A DNA stretch of 28,085 bases from Candidatus Heimdallarchaeota archaeon. GTDB taxonomy: Archaea > Asgardarchaeota > Heimdallarchaeia > Heimdallarchaeales > Kariarchaeaceae. A program made the translations under genes and the position numbers. How positions within the stretch are numbered: position 1 is the stretch's first letter; each line of letters starts with the position of its first letter. The stretch is taken from NCBI GenBank assembly GCA_015523565.1, contig WAKA01000213.1, positions 1 through 28,085 on the forward strand, written 5' to 3'. Below, piece by piece: positions 2,946 through 26,866 of the stretch. The notes beneath the pieces were generated by a model, which searched no databases, was not told the DNA's origin, and was given only the letters and a program-made list of their open reading frames with translations.

Positions 2946-3785
2946 TTAGGTGGTCTTTGGTTGGTTATTAGTTTCTCTTGCATCAACTTCTGCACGAAGT
3001 TCTTCTATTGCGGACATTATCCTGTCAACAGCCATCTTGGATACTTCTTTGGATGGTGGGAGTTGTCTTAAGTCATCAAGATAAACTGGTTTACCATATT
3101 TGACCAATATCTCAATTGAACGGAACCTTCTTCCCCAAGTAATTGATTTGCCTACGGGCATGGCCTTTTCAGGACCACGTAGAAACACGGGGATCACAGG
3201 AACATTGGTAGCCGTGGCAAGCCATCCACTGCCAAGTTTACCAGGATTACATTTATTGAGCCAAGGTTGCTTATGTCTTTGCCCTTCAGGATACCAAAGC
3301 AAAGTGTTGCCGCGTTTTACTAGATTTATGGAATACTCAACAACACTTAATTGTTTTGCGCCTTTTCTTACTGGAAAAACATTAAGATGGGGCGCGAGTT
3401 TTCTGAATATCGGGTTTTTGAACAATTTTTCATCAGCAATGAAATGAACAGGACGGGATGGATATAAGGGAATATTAACGGCAAAACTATCCAAATGTGA
3501 TAAATGGTTTGGCATGAATATGCAATGCATGTTCTTAGGGAGATTTTCTTTGCCTTCAACCCTGAATTTCCATAAAATCCGGGCAATAACAATTGTAAAC
3601 ATGCCAATGACATAATAAAGTAATCTAGAAGTTGTATATTTGTATTCGAAAGATTCAGTAATTCCCGCCGGACGTTTCTTATATTTATTCTTTGTAATGC
3701 CAAAAATTCTTCCAACAATACCATACCTGTATTGGACGGGGGAATCACTTACTTCTTTCATATGTCGTTTATTTAGAAGTACCAT
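2946..3785 (-). CDS. plsC: 1-acyl-sn-glycerol-3-phosphate acyltransferase (LPLAT/PlsC family)
   Basis: Catalytic NHLSHLD (HX4D), plus FPVRKG, WYPEGQR (FPEGTR-like) and VPVIPV. Likely start is ATG 3785 or 3761 rather than the ORF-track start 3911, whose extension is AT-rich and intergenic-like. Confidence 0.9.
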   Translation of the reverse strand: MVLLNKRHMKEVSDSPVQYRYGIVGRIFGITKNKYKKRPAGITESFEYKYTTSRLLYYVIGMFTIVIARILWKFRVEGKENLPKNMHCIFMPNHLSHLDSFAVNIPLYPSRPVHFIADEKLFKNPIFRKLAPHLNVFPVRKGAKQLSVVEYSINLVKRGNTLLWYPEGQRHKQPWLNKCNPGKLGSGWLATATNVPVIPVFLRGPEKAMPVGKSITWGRRFRSIEILVKYGKPVYLDDLRQLPPSKEVSKMAVDRIMSAIEELRAEVDARETNNQPKTT

Positions 3786-3860
3786 ATAAAAATTCCCTTG
3801 AAATGCTAATTTGCTTTTATCTGGAAAAATCAGGCCAGAGAGAAGAGGGTAGGAAATATT

Positions 3861-4012: not shown

Positions 4013-5743
4013 TTATTTGCTTTTGGAAAGGAAACGTTGACGTAATATCTCCTGAGTTGGATTAAGTTCAGGAGTTATTTCAATTCTATATTTAGGAACA
4101 AATTTTACATTTTTGATGGTGGTTTTCATTTCAATCTTGTCATGGAAATAGGTGATTTGCAAATTAAAATGTTCAGGATATGCTTCAATGATTTTTTTAA
4201 TTCTTTCAGGCTCATATTTATATCCCTGTACCGCTATAATTTCATCATTAGGACAAAGACCTGTTTCAGAGGCAGGACTATCTGATCTGATTGATTCTAT
4301 AATATTGGAATTATTTTTGAATTTAATGCCAACTAAATTTTCAGCGGGAACCATTTCCTTGATGAAAGAAAATCCAATTTCCTCAAGGTATTTAGTAAAA
4401 GGAAGTTCATCAACACCATATACATATTTTTTGAAGAATTCTGAAACAGACACTCCAGTAAATGATTCAATTTCCTTGTCAAATTGATCAGGATCATAGC
4501 AGTAAGAAGGGTTTTCTTTATATTTTTTGTAGAGATGTCTAAAAAAGTCATCTAGTTTTTGAATACCATTAGTTTTTTTCAGAATTTCAATATCAAGCAA
4601 TAAGCCAACAAGACCACCTTTTAAATAATAGCTGACGTTTGAATTAATTGAATTTTCATCAGGTCTATAGAGTTTAATCCATGCGTCAAAGCTAGACTCA
4701 GCTAGAGACCTAACAAAACGACCAGGGGTATCGAAGTACTTGTTGATTGCCATGGAAACCTGATCAAGATATTCTTCAAGGGTCATAAGACCAGCATACA
4801 GCAGTATTTTTTTCTCGTAATAATTGGTAAGCCCTTCTGCAATCCAAAGAGCGGTTGTATATACCTCTTTTTCGTAATCAAATGAATCAAGCTGTTGGGG
4901 ACGGATACGTTTTACATTGTAGACATGAAAGTGTTCATGTGATTCCAACCTAAGGACATTCAAGTAATTTTTTCGATCAGAAAAGCTCCAGCGAGAAGTA
5001 ATGCTAACATTTGAGAATTTATGCTCCAAACCGCCCCCACCCTTGTCTACAAGGTAAAGCATCCACAAATACCTGTCATAAGGTAATTCACCAAACATTT
5101 CAATGGATGCATGCTGTATCTTTTGTAAATCGTCCGCTAACTGATTTATGTCATGATTCCCTCTTTTTCCGATTATTGCCAATGTACATGGAATACCGTC
5201 AATTTCATACTCTTTTTGGTCTAAATAGTCCCTAATAGCAAAACCAATTGGAGAATCATACAATTCATCGAAATTGTCAACTTCAAAATACTCATCTTTG
5301 CTTTTCATGCTTGTAAAAATCTCAAAGTCTAGAGAATTTATTTTCACCTTAATAGGGGTATTTTTTATTGGGGTCTTTGGATTGCTTCTGCAGGGATAAA
5401 AAAAAGTTGCAGTGCCATTGATAAGACCTATGTAATTATCCAAATAATTTGTTCGAACTGTCATTTCAAAACAATAGACATTGTACGATACATTGACCTC
5501 ATCCCCCTCTTTTGCAAAAATTTGCCAATTGTTTTTGGTGATTTTTTTCCATGGGACACTCATTTTATTGCATGACACAGAAAAATCTTGGATATGCCGT
5601 GAATATTCCCGTATTAAATAAGATCCAGGAGTCCAAGAGGGCAATTCAAGAATTGGATTGTCAGAGGGGGCAGTAAATTTCATCACAATAGAAAGAAGAT
5701 GTTCTGATTTTCTTTCTGTTGAAACAGTGAATTCAATGGACAT
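4013..5743 (-). CDS. M61 family metallopeptidase (glycyl aminopeptidase) with C-terminal PDZ domain
   Basis: LPSWTPGSYLIREYSR, GGGLEH, HEHFH (HExxH) followed by NVKRIRP, LWIAEGLTNYY, SYYLKG. PDZ signature DSPASETGLCPNDEIIAVQG. Confidence 0.95.
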   Translation of the reverse strand: MSIEFTVSTERKSEHLLSIVMKFTAPSDNPILELPSWTPGSYLIREYSRHIQDFSVSCNKMSVPWKKITKNNWQIFAKEGDEVNVSYNVYCFEMTVRTNYLDNYIGLINGTATFFYPCRSNPKTPIKNTPIKVKINSLDFEIFTSMKSKDEYFEVDNFDELYDSPIGFAIRDYLDQKEYEIDGIPCTLAIIGKRGNHDINQLADDLQKIQHASIEMFGELPYDRYLWMLYLVDKGGGGLEHKFSNVSITSRWSFSDRKNYLNVLRLESHEHFHVYNVKRIRPQQLDSFDYEKEVYTTALWIAEGLTNYYEKKILLYAGLMTLEEYLDQVSMAINKYFDTPGRFVRSLAESSFDAWIKLYRPDENSINSNVSYYLKGGLVGLLLDIEILKKTNGIQKLDDFFRHLYKKYKENPSYCYDPDQFDKEIESFTGVSVSEFFKKYVYGVDELPFTKYLEEIGFSFIKEMVPAENLVGIKFKNNSNIIESIRSDSPASETGLCPNDEIIAVQGYKYEPERIKKIIEAYPEHFNLQITYFHDKIEMKTTIKNVKFVPKYRIEITPELNPTQEILRQRFLSKSK

Positions 5744-8060: not shown

Positions 8061-10157
8061 TTAGCCAAGAATAGTTTTGAGTTCTGTTATGACTTTATCC
8101 TTCAACCCCGGTAAGAATTTGATGCTTCCGACAGAATCATAGCCACCACCAGAAATCATGGCATTTGGCAATGCGTTCTCAAGTTTTTCAAGAATGCTGT
8201 CAAAGTTCACCTTGTCACTGGAAATTCTCAAAATTAGATAATCAGTGCCAATTCCCACTGAAATTGCCTCATTGTTAATCTTGTCATGGTATGCAGTGAC
8301 AAGCCCGCCATGGGAAGGATATTCAAATCTTTGGGCAAACTTTTCAAGGTCTAACAAGTGGAGATCTCCAGAGCCTGTGGATACAATATCAGCATATTCA
8401 CTGATTACTTTAACTGCTTTTTCCATGGCACTGTTACCAACAGCGGCAAGTTCCTTAACTAATTCAAGACCTTTTTCCCGTCTTCTTCCTATTCCAATTA
8501 AGTCCCTGATGGTTTCCCCGCCATCGCTGAATCGTAATCCAAAGAGGACATATTCAATGGCAGAGGCAACGGTTTTCACATCATCAGGAGTCATTACTGC
8601 GTCTTCGTTGCTTTTGAGTTGTTCTGCATACATGTCATATTCTTTTCCGAAGGCACGTGTATGATTGGCTCCAATTAAGGGGAGATATTGGAAGTTGAAA
8701 TCATATTCCGCCAATACCATTCGTGAAATTTCATATGCAAGCATTGAAACAGAAATTTTTGTCTCATTGACTTTATTGTCTGTCCCGACAAGAGTGATTT
8801 TCCCATGAACCTCTGGATCGGAACCGAGATGAGTGACAGAAATAACTGGCAACCCATACATTTCAGCGAAAGAATAGGCAGGAAGTGATTCTTTACTAAA
8901 ACCGGCATTCAAAAGAACAACCAAGGGCATTCGGTCGCCTGGCACAGGACCATCAAGTACAAAAGATATGTCCCTCATTATGTCACTTGTTTCATACACA
9001 TTTCCTTTCAATGGGATTCGTTTAATGAAATGACGAAATTCGCTGGCTTTCTTGCCACGGGATCTTAAGAAGCCCCGTAATGCAAAATCCAACTCATAGG
9101 CCGCTACAGTGCTGTCAACACTTGCAGAATTGTATTTAAGAAGGACGTTTCTTCCAGTGATTACGGCCTCCCTTATCTGAGTTGCGGCTTCAATAATCTC
9201 GTCCCTGAATTTGGAAAGTGTTTCACTTTCAATTGAAAGCTCAAGGTCTTGTAGTTTCTTTTGCTTTCTGAGCACAACTTCTGCAAGTTGCCTATAAAGT
9301 TCCTGCCTTTTCTCGTAGGGAACAGGCTTGAATGAATGAATTGTGAATCTTTCGGCACCTTTGTATGTAGTCATCTCACCGATAACTTCAACAACGGCAC
9401 CCCTATCATATTTTGGATAGGCAGGTCTGCCACCAATCCCGAATGCAGTACCAACTATTGTTTCCCCTGAAGCATCCAACAAAGTAAAGAAAGAAGGCCC
9501 TCGCCTGAGTCTTTTAACATAAACGATCTGTCCTATGAATTTGCCTGTAACGTGATCAACACCTTTTTCCTTGAATTCGGCAATGCTTCTTTCTGGAACG
9601 TCCGCATGTACAACCTTGATTTTGAAGTTCTTTTGTCTAATTGGAATTACATAATACAGCCAATCTTTGTTTGGATCAACTTGTCTTTTGATTTGAACTG
9701 GCAAAATTTGACCTTGCTTGAAAATTCGAGCTTGACCTGTCTTGAATTTGCCTTTAAGTCCAGCCCCCAAGTCCACAAAAACAGTGTCTTTTGAAACCTT
9801 GGTGACAACCGCGGCAACAGCCCTTTTGCTGTTTAGGTACTCTTTGGCTATCGGTTTGATGAACCGAATGACGTAAGGTTCTTCTCGACACTCGTCACAC
9901 ACGTTATTGTCTTTCTCACTGATTTCTTTTCCACAAAAGTCACAGTAGTACAGATAGCCATTGTCACAGTCATCTGGACAAATCTCTTTTTCTACAAATT
10001 TTCCTGCGCCGTTGCATTCAGGGCACCGATCATTGGTTTCATTTGCGGAACCGGTTCCCTTTGTCATTTTTGTTGTGCCAAGTCCACCACATTTCTCGCA
10101 AACAGTCACATGTTCTATATAGCCTTTACCATCACAAGTTAAGCATCTTCTTCGCAT
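8061..10157 (-). CDS. Archaeal RecJ-like protein (COG1107/HAN type: DnaJ-type Zn fingers, S1, OB fold, DHH/DHHA1) with degenerate catalytic motifs
   Basis: CLTCDGKG, CEKCGGLG, CPECNGAG, CDFC and CDEC zinc motifs; S1 VFVDLG; OB fold GPSFFTLLD...AF..GGRPAYP; FEYPSHGG; GGGYDSVGSIKF at the C-terminus. Confidence 0.88.
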   Translation of the reverse strand: MRRRCLTCDGKGYIEHVTVCEKCGGLGTTKMTKGTGSANETNDRCPECNGAGKFVEKEICPDDCDNGYLYYCDFCGKEISEKDNNVCDECREEPYVIRFIKPIAKEYLNSKRAVAAVVTKVSKDTVFVDLGAGLKGKFKTGQARIFKQGQILPVQIKRQVDPNKDWLYYVIPIRQKNFKIKVVHADVPERSIAEFKEKGVDHVTGKFIGQIVYVKRLRRGPSFFTLLDASGETIVGTAFGIGGRPAYPKYDRGAVVEVIGEMTTYKGAERFTIHSFKPVPYEKRQELYRQLAEVVLRKQKKLQDLELSIESETLSKFRDEIIEAATQIREAVITGRNVLLKYNSASVDSTVAAYELDFALRGFLRSRGKKASEFRHFIKRIPLKGNVYETSDIMRDISFVLDGPVPGDRMPLVVLLNAGFSKESLPAYSFAEMYGLPVISVTHLGSDPEVHGKITLVGTDNKVNETKISVSMLAYEISRMVLAEYDFNFQYLPLIGANHTRAFGKEYDMYAEQLKSNEDAVMTPDDVKTVASAIEYVLFGLRFSDGGETIRDLIGIGRRREKGLELVKELAAVGNSAMEKAVKVISEYADIVSTGSGDLHLLDLEKFAQRFEYPSHGGLVTAYHDKINNEAISVGIGTDYLILRISSDKVNFDSILEKLENALPNAMISGGGYDSVGSIKFLPGLKDKVITELKTILG

Positions 10158-17316: not shown

Positions 17317-18540
17317 TTGGACAGCAATATTGAATCGTTGACAAACCTATTTGAGAAATATACAGCAGATTCCGTTTTCAAGGATAGAGTAACACTAACC
17401 CCAGAATATGTCCCTGATGAAATGCCAGGAAGGGAAGACGAGCAAAATAGAATGGTCGAGGCATTGTCAATCCTTTTAGACCCTTTTCGTCCAGTTGCAG
17501 TCAATATAGCAATTATAGGACCAGCAGGTGTGGGAAAGACCACATTGGCCAAAAGGATTACAAAAGACCTCCATAGCTATGCCCAGACCATGAACATAAA
17601 TCTGGACACCCATTATGTCAATTGCCATTCATTCAGAACCAAAACATCAATCCTCAGAAGACTTGTAACAGACGGCTTCTCAAACATACAAGGAAGAGGC
17701 TTCAGTGACGAGGAAATGATGGAAATGCTTGCTAAAAAGCTGATGAGGGAAAATAAGAGAATCGTCTTGACAATTGATGAGGCAGGGATGCTGAAAGGGG
17801 AGGACATATTAGGACTGATCCATATGAACGAACTTTTCCCGCCAGGAGAAGGAAGATTTTCAACAATCATCATAACCAGAAGGCAGCAATGGTCATTGAT
17901 GCTGAACACCCACCTTTCAGGCAGGGTTCAAGATCAAATCAACATGCCAAGATATACTCGTGAGCAATTAAAGACAATTCTCGAATATCGAGCCAGACTT
18001 GGATTTTTCGCGGGAGTGCTGAATGATGAGGTTTTGGAAATGATTATTGATATAGCAGCAACCACTGGGAATGCAAGACATGGAATAGAAATAATGCTTC
18101 GATGTGGAATGATCGCTAATGCCAAAAAATCATCGGTGATTACTCCAGAATTTGTCAGAGCGGCAAAAAATGAAGTTTATCCAGAACTGCGCCCAGATGT
18201 CTTCAACGACCTTAAAATTAATGAGCTCCTTGTAGCCCTTGCAATAGCCACTATTCTATCCAAAGGAGGAGGGGCAGTCCATACGACAATCAACGAGGCA
18301 TATCAAGTCTATAAAATGTATTGTGAAACCTATAATGTAAAGGGACAATCAAAAGCGACATTCAGGATCTATCTCGATAATCTAACACAACTAGGCATTG
18401 TTGTTTCTCAAGTCAAACCGATGCCTGATGGAAGTCGAGGAAGAAGATCAATTATCACACTCCATGACATTCCTGCCATTATTGTCAAAGAAAGGGTTGA
18501 GGAGGCCATCAAAAGAAAATTGAAAGAAAGAATGAATTGA
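17317..18540 (+). CDS. cdc6: ORC1/Cdc6-type DNA replication initiator
   Basis: VFKDRVTLTPEYVPDEMPGRE, Walker A GPAGVGKT, YVNC, Walker B TIDEAG, YTREQL..IL..R, GNARHGI and winged-helix RGRRS. TTG start. Confidence 0.95.
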   Translation: MDSNIESLTNLFEKYTADSVFKDRVTLTPEYVPDEMPGREDEQNRMVEALSILLDPFRPVAVNIAIIGPAGVGKTTLAKRITKDLHSYAQTMNINLDTHYVNCHSFRTKTSILRRLVTDGFSNIQGRGFSDEEMMEMLAKKLMRENKRIVLTIDEAGMLKGEDILGLIHMNELFPPGEGRFSTIIITRRQQWSLMLNTHLSGRVQDQINMPRYTREQLKTILEYRARLGFFAGVLNDEVLEMIIDIAATTGNARHGIEIMLRCGMIANAKKSSVITPEFVRAAKNEVYPELRPDVFNDLKINELLVALAIATILSKGGGAVHTTINEAYQVYKMYCETYNVKGQSKATFRIYLDNLTQLGIVVSQVKPMPDGSRGRRSIITLHDIPAIIVKERVEEAIKRKLKERMN

Positions 18541-18639
18541 AGGACACCATTTACCATTTTAGCCAAAATAAAGGACAAAATCCAAAATAATTTCAATAAA
18601 TTAGAAAACATTTATATCTGATTGCGGAAAAGGGAAATT

Positions 18640-19761
18640 ATGCAACAAAACATCAATTCAAATTCACTCGAGAGTTATCTAGAACAGTTTACAACAGATA
18701 TAGCGACAATCACGTCACAACCTGTTTTTCAGGAAATCTACGAGATTTACGACTTGATAAGTCAATCCATGAGAACCTATTTGGTGAGTCAAGGCTTTCT
18801 AGAGTTTAAACCTCCTCTCATTGGTCCAGTGACGGATCCTGGAACTAGAGGGGCAAAACAGGTTGCCATAGACTATTACGGAAAAGAGTATAAATTCATG
18901 AGTAGTGGAATTCTTTACAAGCAACTCCTTAGCATATCGAGGAAAATGGCTGGTAAAGAAGGTAAAATTTTCTTCTTTGCAGACAATCTGAGACTGGAAC
19001 CACTTGAAACAGCAAACACGGATAGACATTTGGCAGAATTCATCCAAGTTGACTTGGAAATTGTCGATGCAGATCATCATCAAGCAATGGATGTTGCAGA
19101 AGGACTGGTAAGTTATTTGCATCAAGAAATGAAAAAATACGAAGCAAAACTCAAACCTATTTGGGAGTTTTTTGAGCCATTAAGTTCACAAAGAGGATTG
19201 AGAAAAAGAGAATCGTTGCCTGAGATTGTTGGAGCTTTCAAAAGGTATACCCATGCAGAAGCTGTTGATCTTTTACAGACATACATTGGAGAAAATCCGG
19301 ATGTTGTTAAAGAAATTCAACAACGATTTGGAGTCAAGGCTTCTAGATTATCTCCAAAGTCTGAAATTCCATGGGAATATGAGTGGCTTCTTTCTCATAT
19401 CCATGACGAACCCTTCTTCATCTATGATTATCCAAAAGGTGCAAGGGGATTTTATGACAGGGAAAGTCCCCAACAGCCAGGAATTCTAATGGATTTTGAC
19501 TTGATTTTTCCGCATGGGTATGGAGAGGCAATTTCTGGTGCTGCAAGAGAATTTGAGGTCTCAAAGGTCATTCCACGAATGAAAGAAAGTGGGGAAAGCC
19601 TTCAGAAATATAGATGGTACCTTGAATTCCTCAAGAAACATGGTCAACCAACCGCAGGGTTTGGAATTGGACTTGAGAGAGCAGTGAGATACTTCTGTGG
19701 ACTTCCTTCAATATTTTTGGCATTGCCATACCCACGAGTGCCAGGAGTTTTTTCAGCGTAG
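18640..19761 (+). CDS. Archaeal-type ammonia-dependent asparagine synthetase (AsnRS/AspRS catalytic-core paralogue lacking the anticodon-binding domain)
   Basis: Class II aaRS motif 1 (FLEFKPPLIGPVTDP), SGILYKQ, motif 2 (NLRLEP...RHLAEFIQVDLE), GYGEAISGAARE and motif 3 (GFGIGLER). No N-terminal OB domain. ATG 18640 preferred over TTG 18622. Confidence 0.88.
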   Translation: MQQNINSNSLESYLEQFTTDIATITSQPVFQEIYEIYDLISQSMRTYLVSQGFLEFKPPLIGPVTDPGTRGAKQVAIDYYGKEYKFMSSGILYKQLLSISRKMAGKEGKIFFFADNLRLEPLETANTDRHLAEFIQVDLEIVDADHHQAMDVAEGLVSYLHQEMKKYEAKLKPIWEFFEPLSSQRGLRKRESLPEIVGAFKRYTHAEAVDLLQTYIGENPDVVKEIQQRFGVKASRLSPKSEIPWEYEWLLSHIHDEPFFIYDYPKGARGFYDRESPQQPGILMDFDLIFPHGYGEAISGAAREFEVSKVIPRMKESGESLQKYRWYLEFLKKHGQPTAGFGIGLERAVRYFCGLPSIFLALPYPRVPGVFSA

Positions 19762-19765
19762 GTGA
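19760..19765 (+). promoter_or_regulatory. Shine-Dalgarno AGGTGA overlapping the upstream stop codon (translational coupling)
   Basis: gcgTAGGTGAgatcATG; GGTGA is the archaeal SD core. Confidence 0.65.
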
Positions 19766-19769
19766 GATC

Positions 19770-21176
19770 ATGTACCCATATAAACAGATAATAGACAGGG
19801 CAAGAAACGGAAGAACTGCGGTATACCCAAAAGCATCTGATTCTTCAAGATTATCCATCATGGGAGCTAAAATCACAGGTGAATTTAAAAGATTCCCGAC
19901 TATGGAAGACATATTAATTGTTCCGCCATTGTTCACCCCTCAAAGACTTGAAAAATCTATAGACTTACTTGTGCGTGAACCAGTATTTTTTGATGTTGAA
20001 CTTGCAGGAAAATTGGGAGGGTTCCATGTTTCCATGCCATTAGTTCAATCATCCATGGGCAGTCCAGACGTTTGGAACCTTCTTGCACCTTATGCAGCAA
20101 AAGCATGTGCATTGGAAGGGATAATATATGGAATAGGGGAAAACGTCGCAGCAACATGGGGCTATGAGACAAGGAAAGTCAAGAGCCAGCCTTGCCTTAA
20201 GGAGAGAATACTTGCATATTTTGAAAATTTCCATGGAAAAGGAGGAGTCGTTATTCAACAAAATGAGGAAGACGCACAAAGTGAATTATGGAACAGGTTA
20301 TACTCAGACCCTGACCTGACACAGTTTTTCGAAGATGGATTTATTGCATTTGAGATCAAGGGAGGTCAGGGGGCAAAAGCTGGCATGGGAGGAGAAAGAT
20401 ACATAGACAGAAAAACGGCTCTTGAACTGAAGGACACTTATTATATTCATCCAGATCCAGAAATGGTGGAACAAGAAAGATATGAACGACATTCAGCCCC
20501 AGATATTTTTACAGAAGAAATTTTGCGAAACAGGATTATCAAGATGAAAAACGACTACCCAAACGCAAAAATCTGGCTGAAAGTTGGACCATATAGAGAT
20601 TTAGCAAGAGTATTGGAAATTGCGGGAGATACTGGTGTAGATTGCCTTAGCATTGATGGAAAAGAAGGGGGGACAGGGATGAGCCCCTCAGTTGCAATGT
20701 CACATGTTGGACTACCGATACTTGCCTGCATTGCATTGATCAGTGAACAAAAGAAGAAATATCCAAGAACAGATGTCATAATCTCTGGAAGAATGATGTC
20801 AGGCGCAGATCTTGTCAAGGCAATGGCCTTGGGAATGAATGGAATTGCCATGGGAAGACCATTTTTGATTTCAGGCTATAGTTTCAGGTTTGCTGAAAGA
20901 TACCTTGCCTCTGAGCTTTACAGGAAAAAGCTTATTGCAAAGATTGCAATGAAAATAAGGAAACCAAATGAACAATCAGTGCAGTTAATTCGCAATTTTG
21001 TTGAAACTATTCGTATAGAAGCACAGTTGCTGACAGCAGGACTTGGGAAATACGATTTGAAAAAATTGTCTAAAGAGGATTTGGCAACTGTTTCTGAGCA
21101 AATTGCAACTATGTTGGACATTCCAAGCATCTATAGTCAAAAAGAAATGTTTGTGAAACCCCTGATAGTTGCTTAG
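19770..21176 (+). CDS. FMN-binding glutamate synthase family protein (stand-alone GltB FMN domain, no Fe-S cysteines)
   Basis: SSMGS, GIGEN, EIKGGQGAKAGMGG, KIWLKV, SIDGKEGGTGMSP, VGLP and SG...SGADLVKAMALG...MGRPFL. Confidence 0.88.
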   Translation: MYPYKQIIDRARNGRTAVYPKASDSSRLSIMGAKITGEFKRFPTMEDILIVPPLFTPQRLEKSIDLLVREPVFFDVELAGKLGGFHVSMPLVQSSMGSPDVWNLLAPYAAKACALEGIIYGIGENVAATWGYETRKVKSQPCLKERILAYFENFHGKGGVVIQQNEEDAQSELWNRLYSDPDLTQFFEDGFIAFEIKGGQGAKAGMGGERYIDRKTALELKDTYYIHPDPEMVEQERYERHSAPDIFTEEILRNRIIKMKNDYPNAKIWLKVGPYRDLARVLEIAGDTGVDCLSIDGKEGGTGMSPSVAMSHVGLPILACIALISEQKKKYPRTDVIISGRMMSGADLVKAMALGMNGIAMGRPFLISGYSFRFAERYLASELYRKKLIAKIAMKIRKPNEQSVQLIRNFVETIRIEAQLLTAGLGKYDLKKLSKEDLATVSEQIATMLDIPSIYSQKEMFVKPLIVA

Positions 21177-24003: not shown

Positions 24004-25440
24004 TTATTCATTTGCATCATTCTCTTTTTTTGATGCTTTCCCCTTTTTTGGGAGAAAAGACCCTATCTTTTTTATACTTTTACGACTTGTGTTTCCTACG
24101 CTTCCTAGTATATTTTTGGCAAGGCGAGGGGGTGTTTTGAGGGTTGAAACAATTTTGTTTTCTTTTTGGACTGGTTCGGGTCTTTTTACGACAGATTTCC
24201 CATTGTCTTCTTGCGCCATCTCATTTCTTTCATCTGTTAGATTTTTTATATCAGGGGAGGGGGTAGTATTATCTGAAGACAGTTTTTCACTGGAAGAGAC
24301 ACCCATATCAATTTGCTCTCTTTTTTCGGAATATTCGTTCTCATCATTTAATTCTTCACTTTGAATCTCAAGTGATTCATCTGTTGACCTGTCTACAGGG
24401 GATTCAAGTTTTTCGTTCTTGCTTGAGAAGGGAAGTCGAAGAATACCCTTGATTTTGGATTTTTTTTCTTGAATCTTTTTTGCTCGTTCTTCACGTTTCT
24501 TTCGTTTTTCTTCCTCTTTTCGCCGTTTTTCCTCCTCTTTTTCATATTGTTCGAGTCGTTTTTCCATGCTTTTGTACTTTTCAACGTCAAAAATCAGTTC
24601 TGTCATGGCAACAGGGATGTCGAGCCTCTCCAAGGTTTTCCCTGTAATTTCACCCCTGAAATAGAAATAATAGGCAGTAACCAACATACCTAAAGGCATT
24701 GTCAAAAGTATCATACCATTAGCTAGAAGTGTCAAGAAAATCAATAAGTTATCGAGAAATGATAAGTTGGGATCTGAAGACAAAGAAAGCCCAGCAGTTA
24801 CAGCTCCTATTGTAATAAAACTATTGAAACGCGCACGGTATTTGTCTGAGACACGCCAATTGATCTTTTTGCCTTTGTGCCAAGATTTCAATTGCAAATC
24901 TTCCATAGCCCAAACAACAGGAATTATCGGAGTCAGAATGACTGGCACTACAAATAAAATAACACTCCAACCGATAGTAGATGCCATTTCCCTGATTGGA
25001 GATTCAGGTCGTATTTCAGGTTTGACTTGAATTGCAAGTTTTACCAGTGTAGTGGTAACACCTAGAAATGCAATTCCAATGTTAATGAATCTACCAATTG
25101 GTGCAAACAATCCAATTTTTTCACGAGATTCAACATATTCGGAATATATGAGATTTCCACCAGAGATTAACTTCTTGCCCAAAAATGATTGAGTGACAAA
25201 TTCAATAACCCAAGGGGCAAACACTGGAGTGAATTTTCTCCAAAGGGGAAAAACAAAAGCAACTGAAAAGACAGAAGCAGCAAAGAGAAAAAAGCCAAGG
25301 ATTGGATTGGGAGTGACAAAATACACAAATTGAAGATAAAAGCCAAGTGCAATCAAAAGAATCATTGTAATGTAGGGAAGTTTATTGATTACCCATTTTA
25401 TTCTCCTTCCAATCCATTTGAGTAAATACCATTCCGACAT
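24004..25440 (-). CDS. Hypothetical polytopic membrane protein (about 6 TM) with ER/K helix and long disordered charged C-terminal tail
   Basis: Several hydrophobic segments, then EKEEEKRRKEEEKRKKREER and an S/E/K-rich tail. Likely ATG 25440; the ORF-track start overlaps the GGR gene. Confidence 0.75.
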   Translation of the reverse strand: MSEWYLLKWIGRRIKWVINKLPYITMILLIALGFYLQFVYFVTPNPILGFFLFAASVFSVAFVFPLWRKFTPVFAPWVIEFVTQSFLGKKLISGGNLIYSEYVESREKIGLFAPIGRFINIGIAFLGVTTTLVKLAIQVKPEIRPESPIREMASTIGWSVILFVVPVILTPIIPVVWAMEDLQLKSWHKGKKINWRVSDKYRARFNSFITIGAVTAGLSLSSDPNLSFLDNLLIFLTLLANGMILLTMPLGMLVTAYYFYFRGEITGKTLERLDIPVAMTELIFDVEKYKSMEKRLEQYEKEEEKRRKEEEKRKKREERAKKIQEKKSKIKGILRLPFSSKNEKLESPVDRSTDESLEIQSEELNDENEYSEKREQIDMGVSSSEKLSSDNTTPSPDIKNLTDERNEMAQEDNGKSVVKRPEPVQKENKIVSTLKTPPRLAKNILGSVGNTSRKSIKKIGSFLPKKGKASKKENDANE

Positions 25441-25498
25441 CAATATTAATAGAGAAAAATCTGAACTTAAATGATGAGAAACTTCTTCTGGATAAATG

Positions 25499-26866
25499 CT
25501 AAATTTTGGTATTTTCCAGCTTCTTGAGTTTTTTGAGCCAAGGTTCAAAATTTTGTGGATCTGGATAGTTTTTCATGTGCTTTTGAATATTCTTGGCAAG
25601 ATTTACAGTCTTTCTCAGATCCCATAGAACGCGAGGACGACCAATTCCACGAAGGGCACGTTGAATTAAGGGAAGCTCCCTATCAGGCTCATTGACCATC
25701 ATGAGAACATCATGTTCCTCAATGATACCTTTACGCATAATCCAATCAAGAACATCCATACCATGTTTCAAGTAAAATTTTACAATGGCAATGCCCCAAC
25801 TGAACTCAACTCCATAAGTATGGGCAATCCAGCGATTATATTCCCACAGACCTTCTTCAGACCAATCACCTTTTTTGATTGCATCTATTGCATACATCCC
25901 AGCTTTTGCACCACTTAAGATTGCAGGTCCGTGTCCTTCCCCTGTTAATGGATTGGCCAAGGCGCCTGCATCACCTGCAGCCATAAAACCATTATGTACC
26001 AAACTTGGCAAGGGAAGCCGTGCAGGAATTTGGTGACCCTGGCTTGCCAATACCTCACATTTAGGGAAGTATCTTTCCCTTACACGTGAATTGATTTTCC
26101 GAAGGTTTTTTCCGACGTTTTTCTCATACAGCATATAACCGAGACCAATGTTAAGTTCTTTTTCACCTCTGCTGAAAAACCAATAATATCCAGGCATGAC
26201 TTCCTCTATTTCAGGAACATATGTCAAGAAGATTGACTTCTGGAATGGATGTGGTTCTGGTGTGCGGATTATCTCACGATACGCTGCAATCATCTCATGC
26301 TTGGGAATACGTTTTGGGAATTTTTGGCACATTGAATCAGGAAGTCGAGCACGAACAGCACCACTTGCGCCAGACGCATCAATTGTAATCTTTGAACGGA
26401 TTTCAAAATTCCCTTTTTCTTGGTTATAACATTTGAGACCTTTCAGAAAGCCATCTTCAATAATTGTATTCATCACCCGTGTATTCGGAATTACAGTTAC
26501 ATCAGGAATTTTCATGAGTTCTTTCAAAATTTTTTGTCCGTATAGCCATCTATCAACTGTTGAGGTTTTTGAGCCAACAGCAAGGCGGGTTGTTGGGTTC
26601 TTCCCTATTATAACTGCTTCATCGCAATATTCCTTCAATGTGCCATCTTCTTTTGTTGGTATTGGAAATCCGATCCATTTGTTTGCAGTTTCAGGATATT
26701 CAGGGGAAAGAGCATCTCCACAAACCTTGTCCCCTATTTTCTCCAAGGGTTTACGATCAATGACAATTGTCTTGAGTTTTGACTTACCAGTAGCCATTGC
26801 AGCGGCACTACCAGCAGGACCACAACCAACAACCAATATGTCTGCAATTAATGATTCATCAGCCAT
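25499..26866 (-). CDS. Geranylgeranyl reductase family FAD oxidoreductase (digeranylgeranylglycerophospholipid reductase-like)
   Basis: DILVVGCGPAGS, KVCGDA, IDASGA, PGYYWFF (YxWxF), NIGLG and AGDAGALANPLTGEGH. Likely ATG 26866. Confidence 0.9.
   Translation of the reverse strand: MADESLIADILVVGCGPAGSAAAMATGKSKLKTIVIDRKPLEKIGDKVCGDALSPEYPETANKWIGFPIPTKEDGTLKEYCDEAVIIGKNPTTRLAVGSKTSTVDRWLYGQKILKELMKIPDVTVIPNTRVMNTIIEDGFLKGLKCYNQEKGNFEIRSKITIDASGASGAVRARLPDSMCQKFPKRIPKHEMIAAYREIIRTPEPHPFQKSIFLTYVPEIEEVMPGYYWFFSRGEKELNIGLGYMLYEKNVGKNLRKINSRVRERYFPKCEVLASQGHQIPARLPLPSLVHNGFMAAGDAGALANPLTGEGHGPAILSGAKAGMYAIDAIKKGDWSEEGLWEYNRWIAHTYGVEFSWGIAIVKFYLKHGMDVLDWIMRKGIIEEHDVLMMVNEPDRELPLIQRALRGIGRPRVLWDLRKTVNLAKNIQKHMKNYPDPQNFEPWLKKLKKLENTKI

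Follow-up and report, generated by a model that had tools for sequence, protein, structure and literature searches.

Cross-domain pairing of a putative asparagine synthetase with a glutamate synthase-related flavoprotein: a candidate amide-forming module

The window analyzed here, 28,085 nt of contig WAKA01000213.1 of Candidatus Heimdallarchaeota archaeon (GenBank assembly GCA_015523565.1), carries two adjacent genes: gene A for a putative ammonia-type asparagine synthetase, a paralogue of asparaginyl-tRNA synthetase (AsnRS), and gene B for a relative of the flavin mononucleotide (FMN) domain of glutamate synthase that lacks an iron-sulfur motif. The two families are linked across archaea and bacteria, the occurrence of B depends one-sidedly on A, and B is separate from the canonical glutamate synthase (GOGAT) of its hosts. 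We give a probability of roughly 40% to the view that the two proteins work together as a module for amide formation, in which B would deaminate glutamate at the flavin and pass the ammonia to A. An earlier reading of the window from its letters alone (the sequence-only reading) had proposed a nitrogen-transfer module. The conservation of the pair across archaea and bacteria and the separateness of B from GOGAT speak for this proposal, while fusion of B to a flavin reductase domain (PF01613) fits a reductive role of B equally well or better.

The protein encoded by gene A scored 429.9 bits with the NCBIfam model NF005052 (asparagine synthetase A), above the curated equivalog cut-off of 368 bits, and matched Pfam tRNA-synt_2 with 154.7 bits over residues 26–366 of 373. 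The Pfam scan revealed neither an anticodon-binding domain (N-terminal OB fold) nor any other domain. The real aspartyl-tRNA synthetase (AspRS) and AsnRS of the window's genome (G000) have 431 and 436 amino acids (aa). The best solved relatives of A were the AS-AR structures 1NNH and 3P8T from Pyrococcus (E about 1e-33). A resembles AS-AR and bacterial AsnA in having the class II catalytic core without the anticodon-binding domain. It differs from Pyrococcus AS-AR in length (373 versus 294 aa), in an invariant loop of its own (GPVTDPGxRG(A/S)KQ, peculiar to the A family in the alignment), and in that most members of its family are coupled to B; we know of no partner protein for AS-AR. Orthologues of A from archaea and actinomycetes showed 40–70% identity, with a mean column identity of 56%. 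In G000, which is about 90% complete, AspRS and AsnRS were found and AsnB was not, which leaves A as the sole asparagine synthetase identified there. The presence of AsnRS without AsnB indirectly supports a role of A as a synthetase that would convert aspartate to asparagine with ATP and ammonia. The family assignment of A agrees with the sequence-only reading, which had taken A for an ammonia-type AsnRS paralogue. AS-A enzymes are strictly ammonia-dependent according to passages in PMC3854871 and PMC4714757.

The product of gene B matched Pfam Glu_synthase (PF01645) with 84 bits (cut-off 20.4), but the match was limited to residues 193–368 and to profile positions 138–310 of 369. A canonical GltB-type FMN paralogue in G000 reached 312 bits with the same model. 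The motifs FExKxGQGAKxGxGG and DGxEGGTG were conserved in 26 homologues, one position each excepted, and Q200 and K203 of the catalytic lysine loop (QGAK) were invariant in the family alignment. The four cysteines of B are scattered. No [3Fe-4S] cysteines follow GRPFLISG (GRPFLISGYSFRFAERYL...) and none are conserved in the family alignment, as the sequence-only reading had noticed for the window's protein. Thus B shares the FMN (beta/alpha)8 barrel and the motifs GQGAKxGxGG and DGxEGGTG with the FMN domain of GltB (1EA0, 1LLW/1OFD), but differs from GltB and from split archaeal GOGAT in that it lacks the [3Fe-4S] cysteines and an amidotransferase, central, or GXGXG partner, and in that it covers the second half of the Pfam model only. 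At the FMN site of glutamate synthase (GltS), ammonia reacts with 2-oxoglutarate and the resulting imine is reduced. The only chemistry recognizable in B would be that of this glutamate/2-iminoglutarate/ammonia site.

An AlphaFold 2 model of B (pLDDT 84.7) predicted an FMN (beta/alpha)8 barrel. Foldseek placed the model about equally close to the GltS FMN domain, to 2-hydroxy-acid oxidases, and to type 2 isopentenyl diphosphate (IPP) isomerase, with a TM score of about 0.5 and 13%–18% identity; the matches to 1LLW and 1OFD had a probability of 1.00. Since several barrel families were about equally near, we regard B as a distinct barrel family. A weak match to TIGR02151 was also seen. The family is compact, with 69 clusters at E <=1e-30 in an exhaustive profile search. 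Comparison by eye had led us to propose that the invariant R240 of B corresponds to the distal-carboxylate-binding arginine of GltS; hhalign did not support this and the proposal was dropped. The B proteins of the Kariarchaeaceae type carry an insertion of about 30 aa after GRPFLI, which is missing in the other archaeal and actinomycete lineages and shorter in Phycisphaerae-type relatives. The A proteins of the same type have two lineage-specific insertions of about 6 and 21 aa. These paired insertions may reflect co-evolution of a contact surface.

Among 301 genomes of the window's phylum (the Asgard sample, in which an E-value below 1e-100 defined a true orthologue of B), eight genomes from two families harbored B, and A was located directly upstream in 8/8 loci. 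The gap was 8–12 nt in the Asgard orthologous loci with both genes intact, and the nearest homologues bear the names Heimdallarchaeota or Kariarchaeaceae. A wider scan with one genome per species yielded 545 loci with a relative of B, of which the best 80 were inspected. In about 65 of these 80, a homologue of A with 40%–49% identity ended just 5' of B on the same strand. This order was found in Caldarchaeales, Caldivirga, Thermoproteaceae, and one metagenome-assembled genome (MAG) of the Thermoplasmatota, and also in nearly all actinomycetes inspected (Streptomyces, Kitasatospora, Kribbella, Amycolatopsis, Nocardia, Micromonospora, and others), where A and B mostly overlap by 4 nt. The two genes are divergent in Thermoproteus. 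Because the arrangement recurs in dozens of unrelated genomes, the pairing is not due to chance. Nor is it limited to close relatives; such a limitation would, by its own terms, have refuted the sequence-only reading. A B-like subfamily of Phycisphaerae has an N-terminal cysteine motif and no A. A search for fused A/B forms of 820–2340 aa returned none, which is weak evidence. One apparent A-B fusion protein (P0237) was rejected as a frameshifted metagenome assembly, and at two loci (L051 and L085) B is a separate 420-aa gene beside a nonribosomal peptide synthetase (NRPS) gene.

B was never seen without A, neither in the Asgard genomes (8/8) nor in Thermoproteota (35/35) or Streptomycetaceae (32/32). 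Among the 251 genomes of Thermoproteota, A was present in about 59 and B in 35, which leaves about 24 genomes with A only. In the 201 genomes of Streptomycetaceae, A and B occurred in the same 32; one of these has two copies of each gene and one has both genes in a decayed form. Three of the 11 A-bearing genomes of the Asgard sample lacked B. Co-occurrence is therefore one-sided in archaea, where A is often alone, and strict in actinomycetes. In two of these three Asgard genomes (L135, positions 4534–4659; L136, positions 3669–3815) an intact A is followed by a remnant matching the last 40–50 residues of B, which looks like a recent loss of B. In a maximum-likelihood tree of A, sequences linked to B and sequences without B are intermingled on short branches, and we conclude that B was lost repeatedly without visible change in A. 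All actinomycete sequences formed one clade inside the archaeal ones in this tree, beside a Thermoplasmatota sequence (support 99/90). This tentatively suggests a transfer of the pair from archaea into actinomycetes, the Thermoplasmatota branch being long. In Thermoproteota without B, A lies beside glutamine synthetase and a 263-aa protein with a class-II glutamine amidotransferase (GATase) domain (L141–L145, L150), or directly upstream of the ammonia-type NAD synthase NadE (L140, L146, L147, L149, L151, L152). The neighbors of A in the absence of B are consistently ammonia-handling enzymes. The adjacency of A and NadE had also suggested that B could be a NadB-like aspartate oxidase for NAD synthesis. 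We set this idea aside because an oxidase of that kind would have no need of A.

By analogy, the one-sided dependence of B on A matches that of an ammonia-donor subunit on its synthetase. The same phyletic logic applies to PabA/PabB, HisH/HisF, PdxT/PdxS, and GatD/MurT: the donor never occurs without the synthetase, and the synthetase works alone on free ammonia. As for A and B, the genes of two-subunit amidotransferases are adjacent and translationally coupled. Their donors, however, are glutaminases that hydrolyze an amide, whereas B is a flavoprotein without a glutaminase fold, so that any ammonia from B would have to come from oxidative deamination.

We searched six archaeal genomes with B (G000, G302, G304, G306, which is Caldarchaeum, G307, and G308) for the canonical GltB-type FMN gene. 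It was present in 6/6, with 252–335 bits. In G000, this gene is on a separate contig and flanked by GATase-like and GXGXG genes, and it adjoins a GXGXG gene in 4/6 genomes (G000, G302, G304, and G308). For Caldarchaeum G306, the canonical FMN gene and a gene for glutamate dehydrogenase (GDH) were found, while the search for GXGXG gave no match. GDH was present in 5/5 B-bearing archaeal genomes searched, including G000; the GXGXG and GDH searches covered the genomes other than G307. Genomes of Caldivirga, Thermoproteus, and Vulcanisaeta have the canonical FMN gene with an adjacent GXGXG gene and also GDH, and the Thermoplasmatota MAG has pieces of the canonical FMN gene at contig ends. We therefore rejected the possibility that B is the FMN subunit of a split GOGAT of the host: the canonical FMN gene was present in all genomes tested, and GXGXG, where found, lies beside the canonical gene. 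The view that B is a normal glutamate synthase with its subunits encoded elsewhere, which the sequence-only reading had named as an outcome against its own proposal, does not hold.

In actinomycetes the pair is part of a larger cassette with the order MutS (B12-binding), MutE (glutamate mutase), A, B, followed by an NRPS or an adenylating enzyme. SARP or helix-turn-helix regulators and transporters are located nearby, and in some clusters an aminotransferase gene and a SnoaL-like gene directly follow B. No mutase accompanies the archaeal pairs. MutE was present in 69 genomes of Streptomycetaceae, beside A and B in 32 of them and without A and B in 37. From this we conclude that the occurrence of B tracks the amidating enzyme rather than the mutase, which argues against a plain supply of glutamate. 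Most of the MutE proteins next to A and B scored 260–307 bits on PF06368, with a few truncated ones lower, and most of those in genomes without A and B scored 370–467 bits; by these scores the cassette mutase appears to be a separate subclade of MutE.

By names and layout, the actinomycete MutS-MutE-A-B cassette, which lies beside NRPS or polyketide synthase genes, matches the gene content slgE1/E2-slgZ-slgE3 of the streptolydigin cluster. In the sections of PMC5357945 that deal with these genes, slgE1-slgE2 encode a glutamate mutase and slgZ encodes an AsnRS-like protein that tailors 3-methylaspartate (citing Gomez 2011 and Horna 2011). The same source describes SlgE3 as a 'ferredoxin-dependent glutamate synthase' that is said to make glutamate and whose expression is increased at the onset of production (citing Gomez 2011). 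The archaeal pair differs from the streptolydigin genes in the lack of a mutase or NRPS, and SlgE3 is treated in the literature as a glutamate supplier and not as a partner of SlgZ. The streptolydigin side chain is a 3-methylaspartate beta-(N-methyl)amide, and its formation involves no net redox change to the amino acid. Without such a change, a partner of the amidating enzyme in this cluster would more readily be a source of nitrogen than an oxidoreductase with a tailoring function.

We infer the substrate of B, the direction of its reaction, and the hand-over of ammonia as follows. A would adenylate the beta-carboxylate of aspartate, or of 3-methylaspartate in the actinomycete clusters, and ammonia would attack the beta-aspartyl adenylate to form the amide; this step is suggested by the close homology of A to Pyrococcus AS-AR and by the reported role of SlgZ. 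B would be an accessory flavoprotein derived from the GltS FMN domain, which has lost the iron-sulfur relay, depends on A, and acts outside canonical GOGAT. It would run the synthase half-reaction of GltS in reverse, with glutamate and FMN yielding 2-iminoglutarate and then 2-oxoglutarate and NH3. The NH3 would be handed to A, so that the amide nitrogen would stem from the alpha-amino group of glutamate, and its ATP-driven use by A would pull the reaction of B. FMNH2 would be re-oxidized by some acceptor, which may be NAD(P)-linked in the lineage with the fusion of B to flavin reductase. We favor this mechanism because B never occurs without A, is translationally coupled to it, is independent of both GOGAT and the mutase, and retains a GltS-type site.

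Several observations weigh against this mechanism. Two independent actinomycete metagenome contigs (L161, 7784–9814; L162, 6416–8446) encode a 676-aa protein in which B is extended at its C terminus by a PF01613 flavin reductase domain; both fusion genes are located within the familiar MutS-MutE-A-B-NRPS cassette. Another Asgard family has an 801-aa protein in which a 4Fe-4S/FrhB (F420-type) module is fused to a B-like barrel with 37% identity to B (L010, 1288–3693, minus strand; also L011 and P0240), and no A gene is linked to these loci. The two types of fusion imply that B needs a redox partner. Flavin reductase and FrhB modules normally feed electrons in, and the fusions thus suggest a reductive, glutamate-forming direction, which is the main evidence against deamination; the PF01613 fusion agrees with a reductive role no less than with an oxidative one. 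Many hosts of the pair are anaerobic, and the vicinity of the genes offers no obvious electron acceptor. Since the distal-carboxylate arginine of GltS could not be assigned in B, the substrate may not be glutamate or 2-oxoglutarate. The intact A beside a remnant of B in two Asgard genomes means that A does not need B, and in Vulcanisaeta-type genomes both genes are present but unlinked. Furthermore, the published role of SlgE3 is the supply of glutamate.

Prediction of an A+B complex from alignments built in this analysis, which addressed the complex or tunnel that the sequence-only reading had named as a check, was rated as 'weak support', with a median ipSAE of 0.40 (0.52, 0.00, and 0.40) against 0.00 for the best of three controls and a partner pLDDT of at least 80. 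The agreement between runs was 0% and no interface was returned, so that we claim neither a contact nor a tunnel and did not use the prediction as evidence. The same mark is obtained for 58/80 solved complexes and 2/110 mismatched pairs, but just 7 of the 80 complexes had scores of 0.60 or lower.

A different explanation is that B is a simplified ammonia-dependent glutamate-forming enzyme, which uses 2-oxoglutarate, NH3, and flavin reduced by NAD(P)H or another donor, and shares no more than its regulation with A as a member of a gene set for ammonia assimilation. Its role in actinomycetes would be to provide the mutase with glutamate, in line with how SlgE3 is viewed in the literature. The homology of B to the GltS synthase site agrees with this, as do both types of fusion, the description of SlgE3 as a glutamate synthase with increased expression at the onset of production in the passages cited above, and the additional location of A beside glutamine synthetase, GATase, and NadE genes, which could indicate a nitrogen regulon. 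An enzyme that forms glutamate should nevertheless bring a benefit by itself, whereas all of the 8 + 35 + 32 genomes in which B was found also contain A, and 37/69 MutE-bearing genomes of Streptomycetaceae lack B. In addition, B is translationally coupled with A and not with the mutase, and the canonical GltB-type FMN gene is already present in all six archaeal hosts tested, as is GDH in the five that were searched for it. We consider this explanation unlikely.

An enzyme acting downstream of A would likewise never occur without A, and B could therefore act on the product or intermediate of A, either as a flavin-dependent epimerase or isomerase at C2/C3 or as an oxidase or reductase on (methyl)asparagine or beta-aspartyl-AMP. 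In fold, B is no closer to GltS than to 2-hydroxy-acid oxidases and type 2 IPP isomerase, and the weak TIGR02151 match also speaks for this option. Type 2 IPP isomerase is redox-neutral and needs reduced FMN, and a need for reduced FMN would suit the flavin reductase fusion. The aminotransferase and SnoaL-like genes after B in some actinomycete clusters are also consistent with further conversion of the product. This is countered by the streptolydigin amino acid, which needs no redox change, and by the location of the archaeal pair among housekeeping genes. We know of no use for oxidized or epimerized asparagine in archaea and of no precedent for flavin-dependent reduction of an acyl-adenylate, and judge an action of B on the product to be improbable, to the same degree as a glutamate-forming role. 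A further scheme has the same net stoichiometry as glutamate deamination by B and would explain both the tight pairing and the retained glutamate-type site: A would form a bond between the beta-carboxylate of aspartate and the alpha-amine of glutamate, and B would oxidize the C-N bond of the N-acyl-glutamate, so that hydrolysis of the acylimine yields asparagine and 2-oxoglutarate, comparable to argininosuccinate and to peptidylglycine amidation. The A sequences with and without B are, however, nearly identical and interleaved in the tree. As A is alike in both cases, its nucleophile is unlikely to differ, and A without B must use ammonia. We regard covalent transfer as very unlikely.

Taken alone, A belongs to a known type of enzyme, and both types of gene have already been seen together in the streptolydigin cluster. 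In the literature searched, where PMC5357945 was the one relevant source, we found no account of a conserved cross-domain A-B module, of the biochemistry of family B, or of the pairing in archaea. Among the known relatives of B, MgsC (subunit C of N-methylglutamate synthase) is likewise a stand-alone GltB-type FMN barrel, and some homologues of B are named MgsC in the JGI annotation; MgsC, however, acts together with GATase-like and GXGXG-like partners. The 'FMN-binding glutamate synthase family proteins' of about 530 aa share the ERHS, PDP, and KTGxY motifs with B. They and the relatives from Phycisphaerae differ from B by an N-terminal cysteine-rich motif and are not linked to A. That A and B represent a new kind of amidotransferase, in which a reversed GltS FMN domain acts as glutamate deaminase in place of a glutaminase and channels ammonia to a synthetase derived from an aminoacyl-tRNA synthetase, is a more demanding claim, which we consider rather doubtful. 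If true, it would be the first amidotransferase-like system with a glutamate-acting flavoprotein instead of a glutaminase as donor and would show the FMN barrel of glutamate synthase in a new function. It would also allow asparagine in archaea, and 3-methylasparagine units in actinomycete antibiotics, to be made at the expense of glutamate and without glutamine, and would clarify asparagine synthesis in several archaeal lineages that lack AsnB. Well over a thousand genes of actinomycetes and archaea now annotated as 'glutamate synthase-related protein' would have to be renamed, the role assigned to SlgE3 in the streptolydigin pathway would be corrected, and mutase, A, and B would constitute a portable three-part cassette for building blocks of the beta-methyl-asparagine type. 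Whatever the mechanism, the strict cross-domain pairing marks an uncharacterized flavoenzyme family with a clear experimental handle.

The positions of the two genes and of the features around them are listed in Table 1. The intergenic gap of 8 nt (19762–19769) and the placement of the Shine-Dalgarno-like motif on the first stop codon, both described in the sequence-only reading, were confirmed by the coordinates. Equally correct was its view of the pair as a discrete unit between cdc6 and a convergent gene, which turned out to be the zinc-ribbon open reading frame (ORF). This ORF overlaps the end of B by 4 nt. The candidate TATA box would be compatible with a leaderless or near-leaderless A-B transcript; the promoter scan that was run is of the bacterial type and uninformative for archaea.

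Table 1. Positions of the gene pair and adjacent features within the window.
Feature	Position	Strand	Remarks
Gene A, putative AsnRS-paralogue asparagine synthetase (AS-AR/AsnA type), 373 aa	18640–19761	+	ATG at 18640, TAG at 19759–19761
Gene B, FMN (beta/alpha)8 barrel without Fe-S motif, relative of the GltS FMN domain, 468 aa	19770–21176	+	ATG at 19770, TAG at 21174–21176
AGGTGA, Shine-Dalgarno-like motif	19760–19765	+	Covers the final 2 bases of the stop codon of A; 4 nt before the ATG of B
TTTATATC, possible archaeal TATA box	18611–18618	+	21 nt 5' of the ATG of gene A; by sequence inspection
cdc6	17317–18540		Upstream of gene A
Zinc-ribbon ORF (CxxC...CxxC), 75 aa	21173–21400	-	Weak match to the TFIIB zinc ribbon, E 2e-4

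The upstream side of the pair is occupied by archaeal housekeeping genes for phosphoribosyl pyrophosphate synthase, a THUMP methyltransferase, a metallo-beta-lactamase-fold protein, and cdc6. Downstream, the zinc-ribbon ORF and LonB are both convergent to the pair, and the gene for CDP-archaeol synthase is located farther off. Genes for glutamate mutase, NRPS, or polyketide synthase are absent from the window. The families of amidotransferase, GXGXG, and GltD gave no match among the scanned ORFs of at least 100 aa in the window, and to this extent the statement of the sequence-only reading that such genes are missing holds.

Three further ORFs on the minus strand, at 155–1759 (534 aa), 1710–2900 (396 aa), and 24004–25548 (514 aa), had no Pfam match at E <=0.01. 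A 698-aa ORF on the same strand (8061–10157) showed an N-terminal zinc finger of the DnaJ type (CXXCXGXG) and a weak match to an OB fold (tRNA_anti-codon).

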